Of a DNA stretch of 64,000 nucleotides, positions 5,093 to 61,557 are shown in pieces. The first letter of the stretch is position 1; every line of letters begins with the position of its first letter. The stretch is from Octopus vulgaris (taxonomy: Eukaryota): positions 90,644,001-90,708,000 of the forward strand of contig OX597815.1 of NCBI GenBank assembly GCA_951406725.2, in the 5' to 3' direction. A model generated the notes under the pieces. That model saw only the letters and a list, made by a program, of their open reading frames with translations. It did not search any database and had not been told where the DNA came from. Position numbers and translations under genes: made by a program.

Positions 5093-5098
<6 letters not shown>

Positions 5099-5501
5099 TA
5101 TATAGAAGGAGCTTCTACAGGACTAGTACTGTTTCATTCAAGAGAAATCTTCAGGAAGCTATTTAACAAGAATTGTATTAGCATTTATACATTTAGGCAG
5201 GTTTAAAGGAGTGGTGGTGGGGGACTTTTTTGGGGGTAGGCATAGCGCAAAATATCATACTTGGGGGAGTGGTCAAGGAGTCAGTGGTAAGTTAGATGAA
5301 AGAATAGATAAATAAAAAAATAAAAAAATAAAAAAATAAAAAAATAAAAAAATAATAAAATAAAAAAATAAAAAATATATATAAAAAATATATATATAAA
5401 AAATATATATATAAAAAAAGGGGGGATAGAGTTATAGGTAAATAAGGAGATTCTCACTTATACCTATACACATATGTATACGTATCTACACACATATATA
5501 T

Positions 5502-5550
<49 letters not shown>

Positions 5551-5972
5551 CACATATACATACATATCTACATACACACATACATACACCCGCCCACATA
5601 TACAAATTTATACACATGCACATGCATATACCTGTCTACACATACACACACGTATATATGCATACACTCACTCCCATGCATGCACGCATACCCACATGTG
5701 TATATATATACCCACGACCACACATACATATATACACAGAAAAATATATATTCATACGCACATACACTCATGTACACACAACACACCTAGTTCCCTATAT
5801 ACACATATTTACACCTATATATACATACACCCACATACACATATGTACATATATATATATATATATACATATACACGCATACATATATATACATGTGTGC
5901 ACATACATACACACACACATATACATACACATACACATACACATGTGTACCTATACATACCTACACTTACAC

Positions 5973-6021
<49 letters not shown>

Positions 6022-6169
6022 CCAATACAGGCCCATTCCCTAATTTTAATTTTAATATCTTCATTTATTACTTTTGTTATCTTTGATCGCTAGAGCTAAG
6101 GATCCTGGCTATGGCAGCATGTCCATTTGTCTGTCTACTAGAAGGCAAGTACTCATTCCCGCACGCACA
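5093..6169 (-). repeat. PLE terminal repeat (pLTR), sense copy; inverted partner at 9280-10362
   Basis: Reverse-complement identity checked at both ends (tttattatatagaaggagcttc... and ...actcattcccgcacgcaca). Most differences are microsatellite run lengths. Confidence 0.92.
5110..5160 (-). ncRNA. Minimal type I hammerhead ribozyme in pLTR (sense to the PLE ORF)
   Basis: Minus strand: AGCTTC-CTGAAGA-tTTCtcttGAAt-GAAA-CAG tactagtc CTG-TA-GAAGCT; stem I 6 bp; GUA cleavage triplet; palindromic ACTAGT in loop III. Confidence 0.85.
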
Positions 6170-6412
6170 CTCATTAGCACGTACATTCACCCATTCGTAC
6201 ACTCATACACATACACGTACGCACGCGTTATATTCATACATACAAACATCTACATACGTTCACGTATATACACATACGTACTCGTACCTACAGATTCGTG
6301 TCTACACTTTAGGAGGCTAGTCTATACATATACACCAATAAATATACATATATATATATATATACACATATACATACACACACACACATATACTCCTACA
6401 TACAGATACATA

Positions 6413-6476
<64 letters not shown>

Positions 6477-7201
6477 CATACACATACACACATATATATA
6501 TACACACACATACATACACATATATATACATACACAAACATATATACACACATATATATATATATACACACATACACACACATACATACATATACACACA
6601 AACACATACATACGTATACATACATACATACATCCATACATCCATACTTACATGCATTTATACGCATACACACACCCATCTATATATATATATATATATA
6701 TATACACACTCACACATACATATACAAATATACGCACACACATACATACATACACGTATACACATACACGCACATACACATATACATGCGTACCCATACA
6801 CGTGCACACACGCACGCGCATCCATATATATACACACACACACATATATACACGTGTGCAAGCATACATACATACTCATACACGCACACATACTTACATA
6901 TACATATATGCACACACTTACACACATATATACATACACATATACATGCATACATACATATATGCATACATACACATACACGCACATACACATATACATG
7001 CGTACCCATACACGTGCACACACGCACGCGCATCCATATATATACACACACACACATATATATACACGTGTGCAAGCATACATACATACTCATACATGCA
7101 CACATACTTACATATACATATATGCACACACTTACACACATATATACATACACATATACATGCATACATACATATATGCATACATACACACACGCGCACT
7201 C

Positions 7202-7234
<33 letters not shown>

Positions 7235-7393
7235 TACACATACATATACATACACATATACATATCCATACACATACACATACATACATATATATACACA
7301 TATATACACATATACACATACATATATACACATATACATACATATACACACACACATACATATATACATATACACTGATACACATACCCATAC

Positions 7394-7428
<35 letters not shown>

Positions 7429-7511
7429 TATACACATGCATATACTTATATCTCTACATACTCACATATAAACATATATATATATACACACATATATATA
7501 TACATGTACAT

Positions 7512-7578
<67 letters not shown>

Positions 7579-7878
7579 TACATATACACATATACATGTA
7601 TACATACGCAATAATGATACACATATATACACATACACACACACAGACAGATGCATATACATACATATATATATAAATTACATATCTATATAAATACATA
7701 CATAATACACATATACACACACATATATATACATGCATATACATATACAAATATACATACACATACATACACACACACGCGCACACATACATATACACAC
7801 ACACATATACAAATACATACATACACACATACACACACACACATATATACATACATGTACACATATACATATATATAT
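6170..7878. repeat. Compound (TA)/(CA) microsatellite-like region inside the PLE 3' region, with a ~212-bp tandem duplication (about 6763-7190)
   Basis: tatacatgcgtacccatacacgtgcac occurs at 6781 and again at 6993. Confidence 0.85.
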
Positions 7879-8214
7879 ATCAACAAGGGAGGGTAAAGTT
7901 AATTAGTTATTAATCAATTTCACCAAGTATTCAGTATGTAAAGGGACCATTATTATTTTGAGTAAACAATGTTAGAGGGAAAAAAATTATCTAAGTAGTG
8001 GGAGAGGCTAAAAAACTTTATTGGCTGCTATTTCTAGAAAGTTTAGTATGTGGCAAAGTAATTTATTTTATTTTACTAAGCCCTAATTATATAATATTTT
8101 ATACATACATACACATACATAAACACATACATTTACACATACATATGCATATACGTATATACACATATACATACAAACACATATACATATATACACACAC
8201 ACACACATACAAGC

Positions 8215-8253
<39 letters not shown>

Positions 8254-8483
8254 AATATATATACATATATATATTTTTACATGCATACATACACACACAC
8301 ACACATAATACATGCGTATATTCCTACTGTACCCATGCATTTCTATACATATATACATACATACGATACACATATACAAGCGTGCACATACAATATGTGA
8401 AAGGCCTTAGGAGAAAAGGTAATCGGGGGTGCTAGGGGAACAGTGGGGTGGGGTGGGGGGTTGTTGGGGGGGGGGGGGTGTCA

Positions 8484-9338
8484 TCAATCAGGTTGCCAGG
8501 TAGGTCTATAGTTCTTGTAGTTCGCATACTTCTTATGCATGCAATTTGGGGAGTGTTCTGAAAATTTGTTAAGGAGAGGGCCTTTGGCGAACAAGATCTC
8601 TAGGCTCTCTGATATGCATAGGTCACAGCAGGTATGTCCTCCTGTGTACGAGCGCGCCTTCTGTAGTAGTTTCCACTTGGTCTTGAAGGGGATTGAGTTC
8701 CTTTTAAGGTACCAGATGTGGGCGGCGAGGGTAGTTTGGTTGGATTTATCCTGTCGCCGGAACGAGTGTGTGTGTGCGTACCAGCGGGTCTTAAAGCTGT
8801 TTGACGTCATTCCAATGTAGGATTTACTTTTATCGTCAAGGCCTGATCTTACCTCGCATTTGTATACTAGGTCCCTCTGTAGGCAGTTGTTGTTGAGGGG
8901 GCAGGTGGTTTTATCATGGCAGTTGCAACTGCTATCGGACGTTGGATGGGCCCCGGAGAAAGTAGATATGTTAAGTTTTTTCACATTGTTGTTGGCTAGG
9001 TTCCTGGCTAGATTGGGCGTGGTAGAGTAGGAGAGTCTAATAGTGTTCTTATTTAGGATAGTATAGTACTTATGTTGGGTGGGGAAGTGTTTCTGTAGGA
9101 GAGTGAAAAAGATCTTAGCTACAGGTGTAGCGACCTCACGGTTGAAGGGGAGGGGGTTGTACCAGCTAATGTGTCTTCGTCTATTTTTCCTGGGTTGGCG
9201 TGGGGCTATACTAGTGTAGGTAATCTTATCTTTAAAACCACTGCGGGCCAGGGCCTCGTTGTAATAGGGGGCTGCGGCCTGTGCGTGCGGGAATGAGTAC
9301 TTGCCTTCTAGTAGACAGACAAATGGACATGCTGCCAT
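8484..9338 (-). CDS. PLE C-terminal ORF: RT thumb end, linker, Cys-rich CNC..CPL..C motif and GIY-YIG endonuclease (RT core missing)
   Basis: YNEAL..SGF, RRRHISWYNP.PF, SYSTTPNL, CNCHDKTTCPLNNNC, LVYKC...YIGMT..FKTRW..H, CDLC..E, LLNK..E...CMH. The first ~19 aa derive from the inverted pLTR. Confidence 0.88.
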   Translation of the reverse strand: MAACPFVCLLEGKYSFPHAQAAAPYYNEALARSGFKDKITYTSIAPRQPRKNRRRHISWYNPLPFNREVATPVAKIFFTLLQKHFPTQHKYYTILNKNTIRLSYSTTPNLARNLANNNVKKLNISTFSGAHPTSDSSCNCHDKTTCPLNNNCLQRDLVYKCEVRSGLDDKSKSYIGMTSNSFKTRWYAHTHSFRRQDKSNQTTLAAHIWYLKRNSIPFKTKWKLLQKARSYTGGHTCCDLCISESLEILFAKGPLLNKFSEHSPNCMHKKYANYKNYRPTWQPD

Positions 9339-9427
9339 AGCCAGGATCCTTAGCTCTAGCGATCAAAGATAACAAAAGTAATAAATGAAGATAATAAAAT
9401 TAAAATTAGGGAATGGGCCTGTATTGG

Positions 9428-9468
<41 letters not shown>

Positions 9469-9892
9469 GTGTATGTGTAGGTATGTATAGGTACACATGT
9501 GTATGTGTATGTATATGTATATGTGTGTGTGTATGTATGTGCACACATGTATATATATGTATGCGTGTATATGTATATATATATATATATATATGTACAT
9601 ATGTGTATGTGGGTGTATGTATATATAGGTGTAAATATGTGTATATAGGGAACTAGGTGTGTTGTGTGTGCATGAGTGTGTGTGCGTATGAATATATATT
9701 TTTCTGTGTATATATGTATGTGTGGTCGTGGGTATATATATACACATGTGGGTATGCGTGCATGCATGGGAGTGAGTGTATGCATATATACGTGTGTGTA
9801 TGTGTAGACAGGTATATGCATGTGCATGTGTATAAATTTGTATATGTGGGCGGGTGTATGTATGTGTGTATGTAGATATGTATGTATATGTG

Positions 9893-9939
<47 letters not shown>

Positions 9940-10294
9940 ATATATATGTGTGTAGATACGTATACATATGTGTATAGGTATAAGTGAGAATCTCCTTATT
10001 TACCTATAACTCTATCCCCCCTTTTTTTTATATATATATTTTTTATATATATATTTTTTATATATATTTTTTATTTTTTTATTTTTTTATTTTTTTATTT
10101 TTTTATTTTTTTATTTTATTTTTTTATTTTTTTATTTTTTTATTTATCTATTCTTTCATTTAACTTACCACTGACTCCTTGACCACTCCCCCAAGTATGA
10201 TATTTTGCGCTATGCCTACCCCCAAAAAAGTCCCCCACCACCACTCCTTTAAACCTGCCTAAATGTATAAATGCTAATACAATTCTTGTTAAAT

Positions 10295-10345
10295 AGCTTC
10301 CTGAAGATTTCTCTTGAATGAAACAGTACTAGTCCTGTAGAAGCT
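10295..10345 (+). ncRNA. Minimal type I hammerhead ribozyme, copy in the inverted pLTR
   Basis: AGCTTC (10295-10300), CTGAAGA (10301-10307), GAAA (10320-10323), CAG/CTG stem III, TA, GAAGCT (10340-10345). Confidence 0.85.
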
Positions 10346-10431
10346 CCTTCTATATAATAAATTAATTTTACTCTGCTATGTATTGAGTACCTTACTTACT
10401 GTGGTTAACCCCGAATCAACCCGGGACCTAC

Positions 10432-10494
<63 letters not shown>

Positions 10495-12335: not shown

Positions 12336-12445
12336 AATATTCAAAATAAATGGTCCTTTTACATACTGAAACATACTTAAATGGTCCTTTTACATACTGA
12401 ACACTTGGTGAAATTGATTAATTAATTAATTTTACCCTCAATTGT

Positions 12446-12484
<39 letters not shown>

Positions 12485-12490
<6 letters not shown>

Positions 12491-13176
12491 GTGACCACTC
12501 TCTTATATTTATTTTGTAAAAATATTATAATATATTATAAAACATTATAATAATCCAGGTTTCTCGGAGCACTAGGCCACTTGGTGTTGAATAGATATAC
12601 TATTAAATTAGTATCTAATTCTCTCACCCTTATTAATTAATTATAATTATGCTACATTTATTTCTAAATGCAGTATTTGTTTTCCGTGAAAGTTTGGCGC
12701 GCTGTTAGTAGGGGCATTTGAATTATAACGTCGGATGTAATCAATTGAACCACACGTGTATTTATCGTTATGGTAAAATCTGGCGTGTGATTGAGTGGAT
12801 TTCATCCAGATAGTTTTGGCTGAGGAGCTACAAGTGGATTTTTTTGTAAGTAAAATTACATTTAATTCATTAATAGCGAAACAATTGTCCCAAAATAATC
12901 TGTATTTTTGTTATTTTTTATTTGCCCTGTCCGTGTGAGCTAACAATCGTACTGACTTTCATGGGAAACATGTATTTTTGTGGTCGAAACCTTTTGGATT
13001 AACTAGTGCTAGAGTGAGCCATATAGTGACCACTCTCTTATATTTATTTTGTAAAAATATTATAATATATTATAAAATATTATAATAATCCAGGTTTCTC
13101 GGAGCACTAGGCCACTTGGTGTTGAATAGATATACTATTAAATTAGTATCTAATTCTCTCACCCTTATTAATTAAT

Positions 13177-13180
<4 letters not shown>
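12485..13180 (+). mobile_element. Non-coding retrozyme-like or PLE-derived element: 535-bp unit with 161-bp direct terminal redundancy and one hammerhead ribozyme
   Basis: 12485-12645 = 13020-13180 (one mismatch seen); (TA)n on both flanks; no ORF of 60 aa or more; canonical HHR inside. Confidence 0.8.
12807..12902 (+). ncRNA. Type I hammerhead ribozyme with intact core
   Basis: CAGAT.. TTTTGG (12814-12819), CTGAGGA (12820-12826), stem II GCTA/TAGC, GAAA (12878-12881), CAATTG, TC, CCAAAA (12890-12895), ..ATCTG. GUC cleavage after 12889; palindromic ACAATTGT. Confidence 0.88.
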
Positions 13181-13209
<29 letters not shown>

Positions 13210-13399
13210 GCATATATATATGTGTGTGTGTGTGTGTGTGTATGTATCTATGTATGTAATGAAACTATGGCGGTTTAGTTCACAAGTGATCAGAACGACT
13301 AGGTACGCTAGGTAATTGCTGCAACGGATTACCAGGGCTCCAAGATTATTGCTGAGATGGTAGTTATTGAGCCATTGTAGATCTCCGATATAGCGGATA

Positions 13400-17333: not shown

Positions 17334-17422
<89 letters not shown>

Positions 17423-17443
17423 ATTATTAGTGAATTGAAGAAA

Positions 17444-17492
<49 letters not shown>

Positions 17493-17535
17493 TTATTAGT
17501 GAATTGAAGAAATGGAGTTGAACGAAGATTGAACA

Positions 17536-17646
17536 GAATTCCTTTTATTGCATTCTACACATGTTTCAAAAGCCACAATTTTCCAAATTCTGATTAAATA
17601 AGGATCCCATATTGTGGCTTTCTCTTCAGGAAAAAAATAGGAATTC
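17536..17646 (-). ncRNA. Type I hammerhead ribozyme with extended stems I and II
   Basis: Minus strand: GAATTCCT..TTC-CTGAAGA-GAAAGCCACAAT..loop..ATTGTGGCTTTT-GAAA-CATGTG-TA-GAA..AGGAATTC; palindromic ACATGT; GUA site. Confidence 0.82.
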
Positions 17647-18234
17647 CGTTGGCAGAACAAAACAGAACAGAGGCGCAGCAAAGCAATTTGAACGAGGCGG
17701 CTCTTTAAGAGCCCATGGCTGAACTGATTATCAATGTACGTTGAAATCGGGTGGTGGGTGCGTTGAAGATATTTACAGGTCAGGCGGCGGTCAAATCCAG
17801 TAGGTGAGAGCAAGGGGTGTGGAGATGTTCTGTGTGACCAAAACTAAAATTCTGAATATTTTAAAGAATACTGGGTGTGTTTTTTGGGGGCGAGCGAAAA
17901 AAATACCTAGAAGCATGTATGTGTGTACTGGCCTATGTGTGCGCCGCCGTATGTTGGTAAAAGGCGCTACTTAATGGTCACTGCTGAAAAATTCGTCAGG
18001 CGGCAGAAAATATTTTTTGTGTACGTGTGTTCGTCTAGGCCTGCTTGTCAAAAAATTAACGTCGTCAAAGAATCCTAAGGGTATATAAAATTCCAGCTTT
18101 TGCTTCCAAAACAAACCATCATTCGCCTAATGGGAGTAATTTCCCCTTGCTAGGGTTATTCATATATTTCTTAAAAAGCTTTTTCAAAAAATTATTTCCA
18201 AGGATTATTTTCATTTTAGTGGTGTAACAGGTTG

Positions 18235-19680
18235 CTAATTGTCTAAGGTATCATTTATAAGCAAGATAAGTATAACGCCGCCAATGGGGACATCGAAAGC
18301 CGACTGTAAAAGTCCGTTTACCAACCGGTCTCTGGCGAACAATATGTGGAAAAGCTCAGAGACACAAAGATTGCACTTCCTTCTGCCCCTATCGAATGGG
18401 AGGGCCACCGACAAAATCGACCATTCCAGCCTGAAACCTGAGTTCGCGTTCTTCAAACCCCATATAAGCTTGCGAAGTCCCGTGGCTTGGTATTTATTCA
18501 CGTCGCGAATAGTTGCGAAATGGTTGGAAATTCGCAAGGCCAATTTTGACGATGAGGCCCCCGACATACGAGTAGACATCTGAGTCCGTGTAAACCTTAC
18601 ATTGGTAAATGGCATTTCTGATCTTGGAGTTACACGACAAGAACCTTATTCTATTGGGATTAACTTCTGAAATTAGAACTGCGTTACTGTTACTATATTG
18701 ATTGCGAGAACTGCGGCCGCTTACTACTTTATATTCCTCCAAATCACTATTAATTAACGGACTAACCCCTGAGCCTTCACTATCACTGAGAGCGCTGTAA
18801 TTGCTAGTATCGGTGGGACTGCTATTGCCGGAAACGATGTAGGACTCTCTACATTAATGACCCGAGCTGCGCTCACCTCACTGTTGCCATTACTAACGTT
18901 AATGACATCACCATTTCTTCTATCGCTACTTCTAGTATTTAATCCCTGGTTGGTACTGAGATTATCAGTCACTGTACTGGCTCTCTTATCGTTATTACTA
19001 GTATTATTATTCCTACTGATCGTTAAACTGGGAGCGGACGGAGCTGCGCCTCCGGACAAAGGTGGTAGGGTCTTAATAAGCAGCCTATTATTATGGGAGG
19101 CGATTATCTGGGAAAGGTTTTTTGTGTTGGAGAAAGCTATCCTAACTTTATGCGAATTAACCGTGGAGTAATATTTGGAATTTCTGGGGAAGTTACTGGC
19201 CATGGCTTGTCGAAACAGGAGGGGAAGGTTAGTTCTAATCTGCTTACCAAAGGGAATAACAAACCATATATACTTATTCCTATTTATGTGATGGGTCGGG
19301 AAGCCAGCTCTAACATTATGGTGGGTGATTATAGGATGAATAACGGGTTTTGGTTTAGTGTGAACTCCCCCGGCCCGATAATTATCTTTGTTCCCTAAAT
19401 TAAATCTGGAAGTACCTGCTCTAACACTCCCCGCGCTCCCGTCACTACTTAAATTATTTATGTTATTATAGACGGCCCTATCCTGATGACTGAATGGTGG
19501 CATCGGAAGGGCTGGATCAATATATACTACCTTCTGCCTATAGCCGGCTTTGGATAGTGCGGCGTTATAAAATTCCGCTTTCTGCATAAAAATGTCGGCA
19601 CTAGCGGACAAGTTAGACAATCTTAGAGAGATGTTTTTAACCAAATTATCTGTTACGGTTTTGGCATGATTGGAGAAGAC
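18235..19680 (-). pseudogene. Frameshifted PLE ORF: RT thumb, long low-complexity linker, GIY-YIG endonuclease
   Basis: FSNHAK..LVKNISLRLSNLS, FYNAALSKAGY, YIWFVIPF, IAFSNTKNL..II.SHN, NAIYQCKV...YSYVG, then LRISNH...LIWGLK...WSIL...CNLCVSE in another frame. Frameshifts near 18790, 18558 and 18295. Confidence 0.85.
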
Positions 19681-19681
19681 A

Positions 19682-19776
19682 CTGAAGAGAAAGCCACAAT
19701 ATGGGATCCTTATTTAATCAGAATTTGGAACATTGTGGCTTTTGAAACATGTGTAGAATGCAATAAAAGGAATTCT
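19682..19776 (+). ncRNA. Hammerhead copy in the inverted pLTR, lacking the 5' strand of stem I
   Basis: Starts exactly at CTGAAGA (19682); stem II, GAAACATGTGTAGAA and the 3' strand of stem I are retained. Confidence 0.7.
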
Positions 19777-19972
19777 GTTCAATCTTCGTTCAACTCCATT
19801 TCTTCAATTCACTAATAATACTGAAATTCAATTATCCGCACCAACGCACGGTTGCAACACCAAAAGGTTTTATCTCCAACCGTGCTTTCTTCTGTCGTGA
19901 TTTTTGCTACCAAGGTATCGGTTAAACTTTTGATTAATCAGCAACAAGATTATTCATCTTTCTATTTTACCA

Positions 19973-20007
<35 letters not shown>

Positions 20008-37047: not shown

Positions 37048-37879
37048 CATACTTATTGATACATACATACATGCACACATACACACGCACATGTACAACA
37101 ATGTATATTTCGGCTTTTATTTGTTTCAGACATTAGACTCCGGCCATACTGGAGGACCGCCATGAAGAACATTTTAATCAAATGAATCTACCCCAGTTCT
37201 TATTTTTAAAAGCTTGGTACTTATTCTATCGGTTACATATGCTGGACCACTAAATTATGGGGTCATAAACACACCAGCACCGGTTGTCAATCAGTGACAG
37301 TAGACAAAAGCAGACAGAAGCACACGCAACCACATGCATACTCTCACCTACGCACGCACGTACACACACACACATAAAATTAATCAAAGGACATACCAAG
37401 TATGTCTACCTGCTGGAAATAACTGTCAAGACTTTTACTTAAATCGCCAAAATATACTGATAATAACTATAGAAATCGACCGTCCGAAGGTAATCGGGCT
37501 AAGACAATCTATTAGCATACATTCAAGTATTTGGACTCATGTGGACCGGTTTCTGGACTGGCATAATAGCCTCACCTTCCTCAGCACTCGTTACCATAAT
37601 AGAGAGCACCAACATGTCACGCAGAAGTTTTAAATTGTTACACTAGATAATAATAGAGTCAATGATACCATCGCAAATTATTTTCCTCGTGAATTATTTG
37701 CTCCGTATTGAAATCATATATTTATATATATTTGAGGGGCTTCTTTTTCTTTCAGTTTTGGTGTACAAAATCCACTCGTGGCTATAGTAGAACAAACATG
37801 CCCAAAGTTCCACACAGTGGAGCTGATCTCGGAACTATGTGGCTGGGAAGCAAACTTCTTACCACGCAGGACATGCCTG

Positions 37880-37938
<59 letters not shown>

Positions 37939-37997
37939 GTCTATATATATATATATTTATACACACACACACAAACAAACATACATACATACATACA

Positions 37998-38030
<33 letters not shown>

Positions 38031-38079
38031 GCATCCATGCATACATACATACAGACAGACACACAGACAGACAGACTCT

Positions 38080-39990
38080 CTATGATGTTGTTTCTACTTT
38101 CCGTAAACCCCTTGTCAGTCATGTCAAGGCTGAAGGATATCTCACTGGTTCACAAGGAAATAGAAATACCAAAATTACACACTGTTTCTTTGTGGATGAC
38201 TTAAAACTTTATGCAAAGAGTATGCATGAGATGAAAAGGAGCCTCGATCTAGTTACAACATTCTCAAAAGATGCCAGGCTGGAGTTTGGTCAAGATAACA
38301 AATTTTGTATGGTTGTGAAAAGGGGGAAAACTATAAACAAGACTAGAAACATCTCCATCAATGATTTCACTGCTTCCCCTATATCTGACGAGGCATGATA
38401 CAGGTATCTAGCAGTGGATGAAAATTTATCTTACAATGCACGTGTAACAAAACACGTGTCACTAAAGAATATTACAGCCGAATAAAGAAAGTTTGTACCT
38501 AAGAACTCTCTACATTCAATAAAACAGTGGCTCACAATGGATTTTCAGTGCCAGTACTCACACCAATACTTGGGCTGCTTGATTGGACACTTGATGAGAT
38601 CCGAGTCATTGATGTGAAAGCCCGCAAAATACTAAGAAGCACGCATAATTTCCACATAAACAGTGATGTAGACTTCAAACGAAAACAACGATGCAGAGGT
38701 TTAACATCGATCCAAAATGCCTTTGAATGTCGTATCATATCACTTTAGCAACATCTTTTAACCCCCAAGTGTCGAAGTGCATCCCTTGACCAAGTTCGCA
38801 TACATGAGGCTAATAACCTCATAAGACTTGGAAGGCAGCTCCTTGAGCAACAGTCTTTGTCTTATAAGCGAGAATACGTGCGCAAAGAAGTCGCACGACT
38901 CTACTGCAACATATCATCAGATGAAAGGATGAACCAAAATGAATAGAAGTCTATACATGGATATCTTAGTAGAAATCACCGGGATGATAGTAATATCCCT
39001 CATGAAAACAGTTTATCATGGACCATTAGCCGAATTACTACCTCCCCTATGGAAGTGCATGTGTTTGCAATCCAGGAACAGGAAATATCAACCAAGTACC
39101 TGATGCAGGAAAAGCCGTAAAATGTCACAACCGATGAAGACTTTGTGGAGTTCACACTGAAGATATTACGCATATCATAAGCAGTTGTCCGAAAATGTCA
39201 TCACGATATTATCTACCGATGAGACATGACATTGTATCTAGGACACACTATAATGAAATCTGTCGGAAGGATAAACCCGACGACAAAGAAATAAAAACCC
39301 ACAATATGGCAGAAGCCATAGCCACTCATATAAAAAGGAATACTGGTGGAATGTACTAGTGAAGACCTCAATAAAATGTAAGCACAACAGAACTGATATA
39401 ATGATTTGAGATCTAGAAGAGAAACTGTGCAGAGTTGTGAAACTGTGTACAGTTGCTAGCAGATGTTAACATAAAGCTGAAGATCAGTGAAAAAGGGAAC
39501 ACTTATGCTGAACTACTGAGAAATCTACAGTTACTCTATCCAGAATACAAGTTCAAGTTTATACCTGTAATTATTGGGGCCCTGAGATATGTAACACACT
39601 GCCTGAATACCATTCTTGAGAAATTAGGCTTCTCAAAACCAGAAAGGAGAAAGCTAATTCGAAAACTACAGATCCAATCCATCACTGGAACTGTGAAAAT
39701 GTGTAAAACTTTCCAGAAGTTTATCATTTAAACATTTATGTGCATGCTTAGATATACAACTATATGCATGAGAATTCAAACATAAAAGATACAAATCTCC
39801 ACATAGATGCATACATACATACATACATACATACATACATACATACATACATACATACATACATACATACATACATACATACATACCCTGTTGATGATGC
39901 TGAAATGCCAATGATGGACCCTTGGATCTCGGTTAGAAACCCGTTCTTTCTCTATTGGCAAGAAATCTAGAAATAAACTGAATAATGACA
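38080..39990 (+). mobile_element. R2-superfamily (R4/Dong-like) RLE non-LTR retrotransposon, 5'-truncated and degraded
   Basis: RT motif HCFFVDDLKLYAK..FGQD; AIQEQEI; Zn-knuckle remnant EDITHIISSCPKM..MRHD; C-terminal FIPVIIGAL..LQIQSITGTVK; many stops and frameshifts. Confidence 0.85.
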
Positions 39991-59625: not shown

Positions 59626-59799
59626 ACAAACATAATTTTCGTATGTTTTTTTAGACATTCACTAGTACAACGCTAAATACAAAACCAAATATATGGCACA
59701 CTAGGCATAACAACAACATGAACTTCCAACCTGTTGTCTCTTGAGGTCCCTGTGTGAGACTCGGAGCCAACATGTACAAATATAAAGCAAAAGTCAAAC

Positions 59800-59864
<65 letters not shown>

Positions 59865-59865
<1 letters not shown>

Positions 59866-60713
59866 GCAAACAAGCTGATGTTGACCAGAAGCAAACCCAT
59901 CAGTGGCTACGGAGCTCAGGGCTAAAAGCAGAGAGCGAAGGTTTCATCCTGGCTGCTCAAGATCAAAGCCTATTAACCCGGAACTACCAGGCCAATGTGA
60001 TGAAAAATGGAGCAGACCCAAAATGCCGATACTGCAACGACATGATGGAAACAGTGGACCACCTAATCTCTGGATGTAAAGTCTTAGCTCCAGTGGAGTA
60101 TAAATTAAGACATGACAGAGTTGGCCAATATCTACACTGGCTAATAAGTCGGCATTACAATATCAAAACTGCCGACAAGTGGTATAATCACCACCCTGAG
60201 GCTGTAACTGAAGGAGAAAATGTAACCATTCTGTGGGACTTTCCAGTACATACAGACCGAACCATCAAGGCCAATAAACCAGATATTGTTGTGAAAGACC
60301 AAAACAATAAAGTTTGCTTATTGGTCGACATGAGCATCCCCTGTGATCATAATATCTCAGCAAAAGAGTTTGACAAGCTGAGAAAATATAAAGACCTACT
60401 CATTGAAATTGAGAAAATGTGGCATCTGAAGGCGGTTACAATACCAGTGATCGTAGGAGCACTAGGAATGATCAAGAAGGGAACCGAAAATTATATGAGA
60501 ATGATCCCTGGCTTACCATCCCTGCAAGAAGTGCAAAAGATTGTCTTAACTGGTACATCACACGTATTGAGAAGAGCATTGTCGATGTGAGAACTGTTGC
60601 TGCTCATGTATTTTAATTTAACTTAAAAAATGTATACTATGAGTTTCTTTGCCCTAGGAGTCGGGAAGACACTCGGCAAGAAATGGAAGCAAATTTGAAA
60701 GAAGAAAAAAAAA
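59865..60713 (+). mobile_element. R4/Dong-like RLE retrotransposon 3' fragment in (TAA)n; open frame to 60590
   Basis: WLRSSGLKAESEGFILAAQDQ, CCHC knuckle CRYC..ETVDHLISGC, RHD, RLE motif KPDIVV..LVDMSIP..K..KY, IPVIVGALG; (TAA)n on both sides. Confidence 0.92.
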
Positions 60714-60730
60714 GTAATAATAATAATAAC

Positions 60731-61557
<827 letters not shown>

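Follow-up and report, generated by a model that had tools for sequence, protein, structure and literature searches.

In this stretch of the Octopus vulgaris genome (contig OX597815.1), the whole of whose 64,000 nucleotides is referred to here as the window, a short tandem repeat lies between two Penelope-like elements (PLEs) of the Hydra clade. The features on which the argument draws are the following.

5093..10435, no strand assigned: two-armed coding Hydra-clade PLE, with a short end at ~5093 and a tailed end at 10435, both in (TA)n
8484-9362, minus strand: ORF remnant of this left Hydra-clade PLE
5154, minus strand, and 10301, plus strand: hammerhead ribozyme (HHR)-like motifs of the left PLE
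12448..12484 (run 12448-12490), no strand assigned: left (TA)n target, with a ragged 5' junction at 12485 and TA-like microhomology
12485..12645, plus strand: incomplete second unit covering unit positions 375-535, at the truncated 5' end of a 1.3-unit arm
12646..13180, plus strand: one complete non-coding unit of 535 nt, with 32% GC and strong predicted self-pairing
12813..12896, plus strand: type I hammerhead motif, with the cut predicted after 12889 (unit position 244) at a GUC triplet
13047..13050, plus strand: fixed 3' end A (unit ~402-405), where roughly half of the arms terminate but the window copy does not
13051..13180, plus strand: "tail" of 130 nt that separates fixed end A from fixed end B, the latter (13176-13180) being where the window copy ends
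13181..13221 (run 13177-13221), no strand assigned: right (TA)n target
17490..19976, no strand assigned: second two-armed, decayed Hydra-clade PLE, with a short end at ~17490 and a ~155-nt tail ending at ~19976
17629-17556, minus strand, and from 19682, plus strand: HHR-like motifs of the right PLE

The unit is defined as window 12646-13180, such that unit position u is the window coordinate minus 12645. Part of it recurs directly with a period of 535 (12485-12645 equals 13020-13180), the sole mismatch falling at 12543, and the limits of identity are sharp, ending at 12484 and 12646. The doubled unit contains no ORF (the longest stop-free frame runs to 87 codons, or 52 from a Met), and its RNA is predicted to fold strongly: none of 100 shuffles is as stable as the unit (z -6.47), and as a circle it folds at -142 against -104 +/- 5 kcal/mol. 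The original prediction was accurate in its description of the site, namely the non-coding direct repeat with one mismatch, the (TA)n on both sides, the complete type I HHR in the unique part and HHR-bearing PLEs no more than 5 kb away on either side (the motifs at 10301 on the plus strand and 17629-17556 on the minus strand).

Adjoining the repeat on the left, window 12343-12447 is a short piece of the left Hydra family's 3' UTR with an internal 31-nt duplication; it ends in (TA)n and appears to be an older or alternative 3' end, and it is into the TA run of this fragment that the retrozyme is inserted. Elsewhere in the window, three ORF remnants (37736-38398, 59745-60590 and 60790-61344) adjoin (AAT)n runs, and we take them to resemble the RT and C-terminal domains of RTE/R2-type non-LTR retrotransposons.

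A Young and Dispersed Family

The 535-nt repeat is a young, dispersed, non-coding family that bears a hammerhead, and the multi-copy unit with tandem multimers that had been predicted is readily found. A search with a 22-mer taken from the unit gave 1150 exact matches across the genome and none for its reversed control, and the copy density on contig C1 scales to 1285 genome-wide, so that a huge satellite block cannot be accommodated. The identity of copies to the window unit ranges over 94-100%, and arms reach 12.8 tandem units, with more than one unit in 76 of 144 arms. There is no LTR-type organization, the direct repeat being a partial unit of variable length and long arms running on into the unit itself. 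On sequence grounds, the family is likely to be a non-LTR retrozyme.

Out of several hundred insertions, 94 loci were examined, comprising a census of C1 (42 loci, two duplicates dropped), 36 loci drawn from the best blast matches, which are biased to window-like copies, and 18 others. The segmental duplicates L102 and L103 were excluded, and a further paralog, L101, remains in the arm, cut-site, haplotype and 51-insertion pairing counts given below.

At least two non-coding sister families, with periods of 480-506 and 493 and ~70-77% identity where alignable, share both ends and the hammerhead with the 535-nt family, and a degenerate end motif that the unit has in common with its sister families has 3113 matches in the genome. 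Sister hammerhead repeats were noted at L150 and L267-L270, at L158-L177, and at L258, L259 and L273 (periods 480-506, 493 and 567); one sister repeat has GUU at the cleavage triplet and copies mostly shorter than one unit. The unit sequence is also near-identical in public runs under six organism codes (A-F), none of the runs listed being recorded as RNA, and the family may be common to several related species or labels. A 565-nt self-closing contig of unit period in run X1 is not evidence of a circle, as a tandem DNA array gives the same and the kind of run is unrecorded.

Insertion Anatomy

The 3' ends of the insertions lie at one of two sites 130 nt apart, A (u ~402-405) or B (u ~529-535), with a single exception (L119), and a (TA)4+ run is found within 35 nt of 115 of the 119 3' ends. 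The circularly permuted copies that had been predicted are therefore seen in part: the 5' ends are ragged and scattered over the unit, but the two fixed 3' sites leave no free permutation.

About half of the insertions consist of two arms placed head to head, and every one of these that can be classified pairs an A end with a B end. This holds for 51 of 51 insertions (50 of 50 without the paralog L101), and within the C1 census alone for 21 of 21 (20 without L101), one additional two-armed insertion having an unclassifiable end. Single arms are divided between 20 A and 21 B, and against that split the A+B pairing has p ~9e-16. A complex locus outside the main count (L008) is likewise A+B; in a sister repeat, A+A occurs in one of six two-armed copies. 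Arm lengths within two-armed insertions are weakly correlated (rho 0.35, n=51), and the central junctions mostly show an overlap of 0-6 nt. Fold-back self-priming, considered as a general source of the inverted arms, is ruled out for the 20 of 50 two-armed insertions in which neither of the arms is contained in its partner. In the window, the copy consists of a single arm of 1.3 units that ends at B and carries one ribozyme.

End B itself is a perfect 14-nt palindrome (window 13167-13180; unit positions 523-535). The 5' end falls exactly at the end-B unit boundary in 7 of 144 arms, mostly A-ended ones.

The Hammerhead Motif

Stem I of the motif pairs 12813-12819 with 12890-12896 over 7 bp and can be lengthened to 12807-12902. 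The core is formed by CUGAGGA (12820-12826) and GAAA (12878-12881), stem II (12827-12830/12874-12877) closes a long structured loop, and helix III consists of 2 bp and a palindromic AAUU loop. A strict hammerhead descriptor has one match in the unit and none in 5000 dinucleotide shuffles. Rfam returned no hammerhead for the window copy, and likewise none among the 150 of 174 window rows listed; the miss of the window copy is probably due to its loop II, which is unusually long. The short-loop sister copy L150 scores 32 bits against RF00163 Hammerhead_1 (gathering 34), with an E value of 9.6e-7 for the 121-base search.

Across the sister families, the pairing of stem I is kept through compensatory changes. 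In the conventional numbering of hammerhead positions (U4, N7), N7, a position known to tolerate change, is the sole column of 519 in which all four bases each occur in at least two insertions. The core shows no excess conservation in the family (5 of 11 core columns are invariant against 278 of 437 in the background), and a U4-to-C core change is present in three insertions (L096, L108 and L114), L096 having U at core position 4 in 3 of its 12 units. This sublineage still gave multi-unit insertions. The predicted lowest-energy fold of the monomer lies 2.7 kcal/mol below the active hammerhead fold. Mussel retrozyme HHRs are described as being without most of the typical tertiary contacts between loops I and II (PMC7229834), and an invertebrate helix III of 2 bp and a tetraloop is reported to cleave as a monomer (PMC7229834; PMC7761336). 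The original prediction took the palindromic stem III to favor dimeric activity; dependence on a dimer is thus not established.

Probable Mobilization by Penelope-Like Elements

The family carries the insertion signature of EN+ PLEs, that is, 5' truncation, partial tandems, an inverted 5'-truncated copy and a tail at one end. Each of the two PLEs that flank the repeat has two arms, its short end and its tailed end both lying in (TA)n, and A/B-type anatomy is found in three coding Hydra-clade families; in the third of these, 11 of 11 clean two-armed copies are A+B, alongside one three-ended locus. Because the insertion anatomy matches the published PLE signature (PMC8557442; PMC3846280), no part of our reading is better supported than mobilization of the 535-nt family by a PLE enzyme, which seems to us very probable. 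The expectation of PLE-type machinery has in this respect held well, the A+B pairs in (TA)n recurring as in coding PLEs. It is likely, moreover, that the reverse transcriptase of a Hydra-clade PLE copies the unit in trans.

The left family (L153, L154) is young, with 99% protein identity among its top copies, open frames of ~720 codons, an HHR ~150 nt before the ATG and a ~4.76 kb tandem unit that includes long microsatellite-like stretches. Relatives in the right-hand family (L280, L282, L290, L293, L302) have open frames of 891-907 codons and ~43% identity to the left family, and the right PLE of the window has a 69-nt duplication of its short end at 17378-17514. The third Hydra family (L308-L328) is likewise young. 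Its open frames of ~840 aa include an Asn-rich insert, its 3' region is long and non-coding, its tail measures ~75 nt, and its HHR is compact, with a helix III palindrome matching that of the 535-nt unit. The family was found by searching for that palindrome pattern (1991 matches, control 16), and the shared palindrome is consequently not counted as evidence; the family is nevertheless the best candidate for the helper. The motifs RW[R/K], DKT and CxCx5C, by which PMC8557442 delimits the Hydra clade, are present in the left and third families. Rfam gave no match for the short HHR of the third family, and Pfam returned nothing informative for three PLE ORF pieces.

Local alignment of the unit's 3' region with two Hydra families was not significant (scores as good arose in 1285 and 349 of 2000 shuffles), and a likeness between end B and the left Hydra family's 3' region, for which 1285 of 2000 shuffles were as good, was rejected. 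For the sister L150 against a Hydra 3' region, one of six tests, 1 of 2000 shuffles was as good. A blast of the unit in 30 third-family loci gave no match in 28, the other two being rearranged paralogs. A junction between a PLE ORF and a sister retrozyme (L265, L274, L275), considered as a template-switch chimera, was rejected as a later rearrangement; the paralogs L304 and L305 have its 5' flank and its PLE insertion, but in them the ORF runs on, and the sister repeat of L305 lies ~5 kb downstream. A four-copy segmental duplication was observed on G000:C1 near 7.51, 205.71, 205.85 and 206.36 Mb (L101-L103, L109, L304-L307); its copies of a single insertion are unequal by whole units, and in it a sister repeat has come to be joined with a PLE ORF.

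Circular or Linear Template

The nature of the RNA that is copied can be approached through the ribozyme cut site, which arms pass in 214 of 218 encounters, the four stops comparing with 4.5 expected. The site is covered by 212 unit pieces, none of which has an indel at the junction. Such scarless crossing makes it unlikely that a linear monomer cut at the site was copied or that there was untidy jumping from end to end, and as a template the cut linear monomer was ruled out on this read-through. Median divergence is 0.26% within an insertion and 2.3% between insertions, and among the insertion-private alleles, 19 are fixed in every covering unit (10 across both arms), 101 are confined to a single unit and 9 are partial. 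Insertions that are mostly of a single haplotype point to repeated passage through one unit followed by re-multimerization, most simply by laps of a circle, and on these patterns we incline, by a modest degree, towards an RNA circle as the main template.

The same element and the same PLE helper might instead work from a linear tandem transcript that is made from a genomic array and left uncut, with both polymerases starting in one 3' unit and reading upstream, with uniform arrays regenerated by cDNA re-annealing or DNA recombination and the ribozyme serving to trim or riding as a passenger. We consider this less likely than the circle, but viable. A linear transcript likewise predicts seamless read-through of the cut site, and since it leaves a like trace, terminal redundancy alone is no proof of a circle. 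The step from terminal redundancy to a circle in the original prediction accordingly stands in part: the prevalence of one haplotype per insertion favors the circle, but an uncut tandem transcript gives the same trace and several arrays are mosaic. In L062, L063 and L096, a variant common to the outermost units of the two arms is missing from most inner units, which speaks for a linear transcript, and the ~11.5 units of L061 (G000:C28:10732700-10739000) form a period-4 pattern of two haplotypes, which would also suit it; L061 is possibly a source locus, the product of a multimeric template or a local duplication. In L221, one variant is present in 4 of 13 units. Insertions from the U4C sublineage and the finding that HHR mutants were without effect on insertion in vitro (PMC11167929) are on the same side, as are four segmental paralogs of one insertion that differ by whole units, from which it follows that units are gained or lost at the DNA level. 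Together, the mosaic arrays and whole-unit paralog differences call for a tandem transcript, multimeric circles or DNA-level change in some arrays; assembly error behind the mosaics is possible.

The linear transcript meets its difficulties in the uniform majority. Many haplotypes uniform within their insertions, with 19 private fixed alleles, would demand many separate uniform master arrays. Minority alleles stand at matching rank in both arms in 6 of 47 cases, compared with 6 of 164 at other ranks, which tells against a single monomeric circle, yet the other 41 of 47 are without such a match between arms. Furthermore, with 5' truncation alone, arrays would become shorter at each generation, whereas several haplotypes have arms of 6-13 units.

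Far less probable is an origin without any RNA step, in which minisatellites derived from an old PLE terminal repeat were amplified and dispersed at the DNA level through unequal exchange or extrachromosomal DNA circles. Whole-unit differences among paralogs and the period-4 block of L061 would fit such a process, and local tandem amplification of PLE termini has been proposed (bioRxiv 10.64898/2026.07.22.740005), but the fixed 3' ends of one polarity, ragged 5' ends, A+B pairs and (TA)n targets match those of coding PLEs and are unexpected from DNA recombination. Less probable still, and largely refuted, is that the copies are 5'-truncated pseudo-LTR (pLTR) fragments of an autonomous PLE with its ORF farther upstream, for although their ends, tail and HHR organization are as in coding PLEs and the ~94 insertions examined are drawn from several hundred, the long arms run into the unit itself for up to 12.8 laps, none of the 94 loci matches two Hydra-clade proteins by tblastn at E<1e-5 (so that, as predicted, the repeat is not the pLTR of an attached PLE ORF), single-arm 5' flanks are mostly (TA)n, a few sharing repeat-like matches of 72-83%, and the sole ORF-unit junction found is the later rearrangement.

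A Model for the Family

The reading that we put forward as a whole, a retrozyme copied in trans and mobilized by a PLE, with fixed ends in (TA)n and probably by way of a one-unit RNA circle, appears to us somewhat more credible than doubtful. On this model, arrays with at least two ribozymes would be transcribed and would self-cleave after unit position 244, and the monomer would be ligated into a circle. A dimer of the PLE protein would then bind the A-B region and cut both strands of a (TA)n target, one DNA strand priming at A and the other at B. Each polymerase would travel a variable distance round the template, after which the two cDNAs would be joined head to head through end-joining, or a single arm would be joined to the target. 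The window copy would represent a B-primed single arm, and with its single ribozyme it would be without monomer release of its own.

A more specific and tentative proposal, which we hold with greater doubt than conviction, is that the PLE dimer loads a single 535-nt circle in an asymmetric manner, with priming by one subunit invariably at A and by its partner at B against the two strands of a cleaved (TA)n target, and each making laps of its own. The tail and inverted arms would then be the print of obligate two-site double priming, and not of endonuclease resolution or self-priming. If this is true, rolling-circle reverse transcription has left a fossil record in the genome, and the 535-nt RNA with an intact Hydra ORF of the same genome would be a minimal demonstration system.

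The mechanism of PLE insertion, including the tail, the inverted arms and the role of the ribozyme, is still debated, and the family provides a countable genomic record. That record bears on both helper and mechanism through the strict A+B rule, the read-through of the cut site and arrays that are mostly of a single haplotype, and at the level of the family it ties the retrozyme to Hydra-type PLE insertion and suggests obligate two-site priming. As the family is short, young and resident in a genome with intact Hydra-clade ORFs, the competing models are directly testable in vitro.

Comparison With Known Systems

The element type is known, and the hypothesis that PLEs mobilize retrozymes by way of circular RNA has already been published. 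Earlier work describes non-LTR retrozymes together with their circRNAs, and a model of multi-lap cDNA synthesis by PLE RT (PMC7229834; PMC7761336), the former paper proposing a retrozyme cycle through circRNA and PLE RT. The literature searched held no description of the 535-nt family or of a strict A+B rule; Repbase/Dfam, subscription papers and supplements (e.g., the HHR/family lists of PMC8557442) were outside the scope of that search and may contain them. A main-text term search of the octopus repeat annotation (PMC13282606) found no "ribozyme," "retrozyme" or "hammerhead." The suggestion of an undescribed retrozyme family can be retained within these bounds for the family, but its kind, the rolling-circle model and the link to PLEs are published (PMC7229834; bioRxiv 10.64898/2026.07.22.740005).

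Metazoan non-LTR retrozymes of coral, mussel and axolotl (Cervera and de la Pena, 2020; PMC7229834) are, like the present family, non-coding, low-GC, self-paired tandem units with one type I HHR each, a helix III of 2 bp and a tetraloop, many dispersed copies and no LTR-type organization. The unit here is longer, at 535 nt compared with 150-450 in those retrozymes; Li et al. give 51-972 bp in their sampled animals. Loop II is long here, unlike in the retrozymes of PMC7229834, and the portion of that paper drawn on here has no description of double fixed 3' ends with inverted arms. Cleavage and circRNA were demonstrated there, whereas the 535-nt family is known from sequence alone. Animal retrozymes are presented, in the portion of the 2020 review consulted (PMC7761336), as having no motif that points to a helper.

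A recent preprint argues from 35 genomes, in the portion used here without a mollusc, that the retrozymes of Xenopus and other vertebrates derive from PLEs and are non-autonomous (bioRxiv 10.64898/2026.07.22.740005). PLE dependence and the presence of monomers, dimers and multimers are as in the octopus family, and one of nine dimers tested in that work cleaved. The basis of the PLE link differs: in the same portion of the preprint it is co-occurrence and pLTR homology, without insertion anatomy, whereas here it is the insertion signature, with no homologous pLTR found.

Among coding elements, the Hydra-clade PLEs (Craig et al., 2021; PMC8557442) share with the family (TA)n targets, an HHR, partial tandems, an inverted 5'-truncated copy and a tail at one end. 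The octopus unit differs in having no ORF and a tail of 130 nt, as opposed to 30-40 nt. A tail at one end is found "often" in PMC8557442 and is ascribed to endonuclease resolution, whereas here it is present in 50 of 50 independent insertions. For inverted arms with a one-end tail, endonuclease resolution is suggested in PMC8557442 and self-priming in PMC3846280. The non-autonomous Chlamys elements, such as MRC1 (PMC8557442), are likewise non-coding PLE passengers, which form head-to-tail multimers as well as pLTRs. They are algal, mostly without a canonical HHR in the portion of that paper considered, and resemble their autonomous families at the 3' end, whereas no such 3' likeness was significant for the unit against the two Hydra families aligned here.

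The closest biochemical parallel is with Poseidon-Ac, a PLE studied in vitro by Frangieh et al. (2024; PMC11167929), in which reverse transcription starts at two internal sites and both strands are extended. For Poseidon, HHR cleavage was not needed and mainly unprocessed RNA was used (PMC11167929). As seen in or proposed for the octopus family, two RT starts bound a tail, the target is AT-rich, both strands are cut and extended, and the protein is predicted to form a dimer. The two systems part over the assignment of start sites to strands: in the portion of the Poseidon-Ac paper used here, the strands show no difference in this respect, whereas the genomic copies described above imply A on one strand and B on the other.
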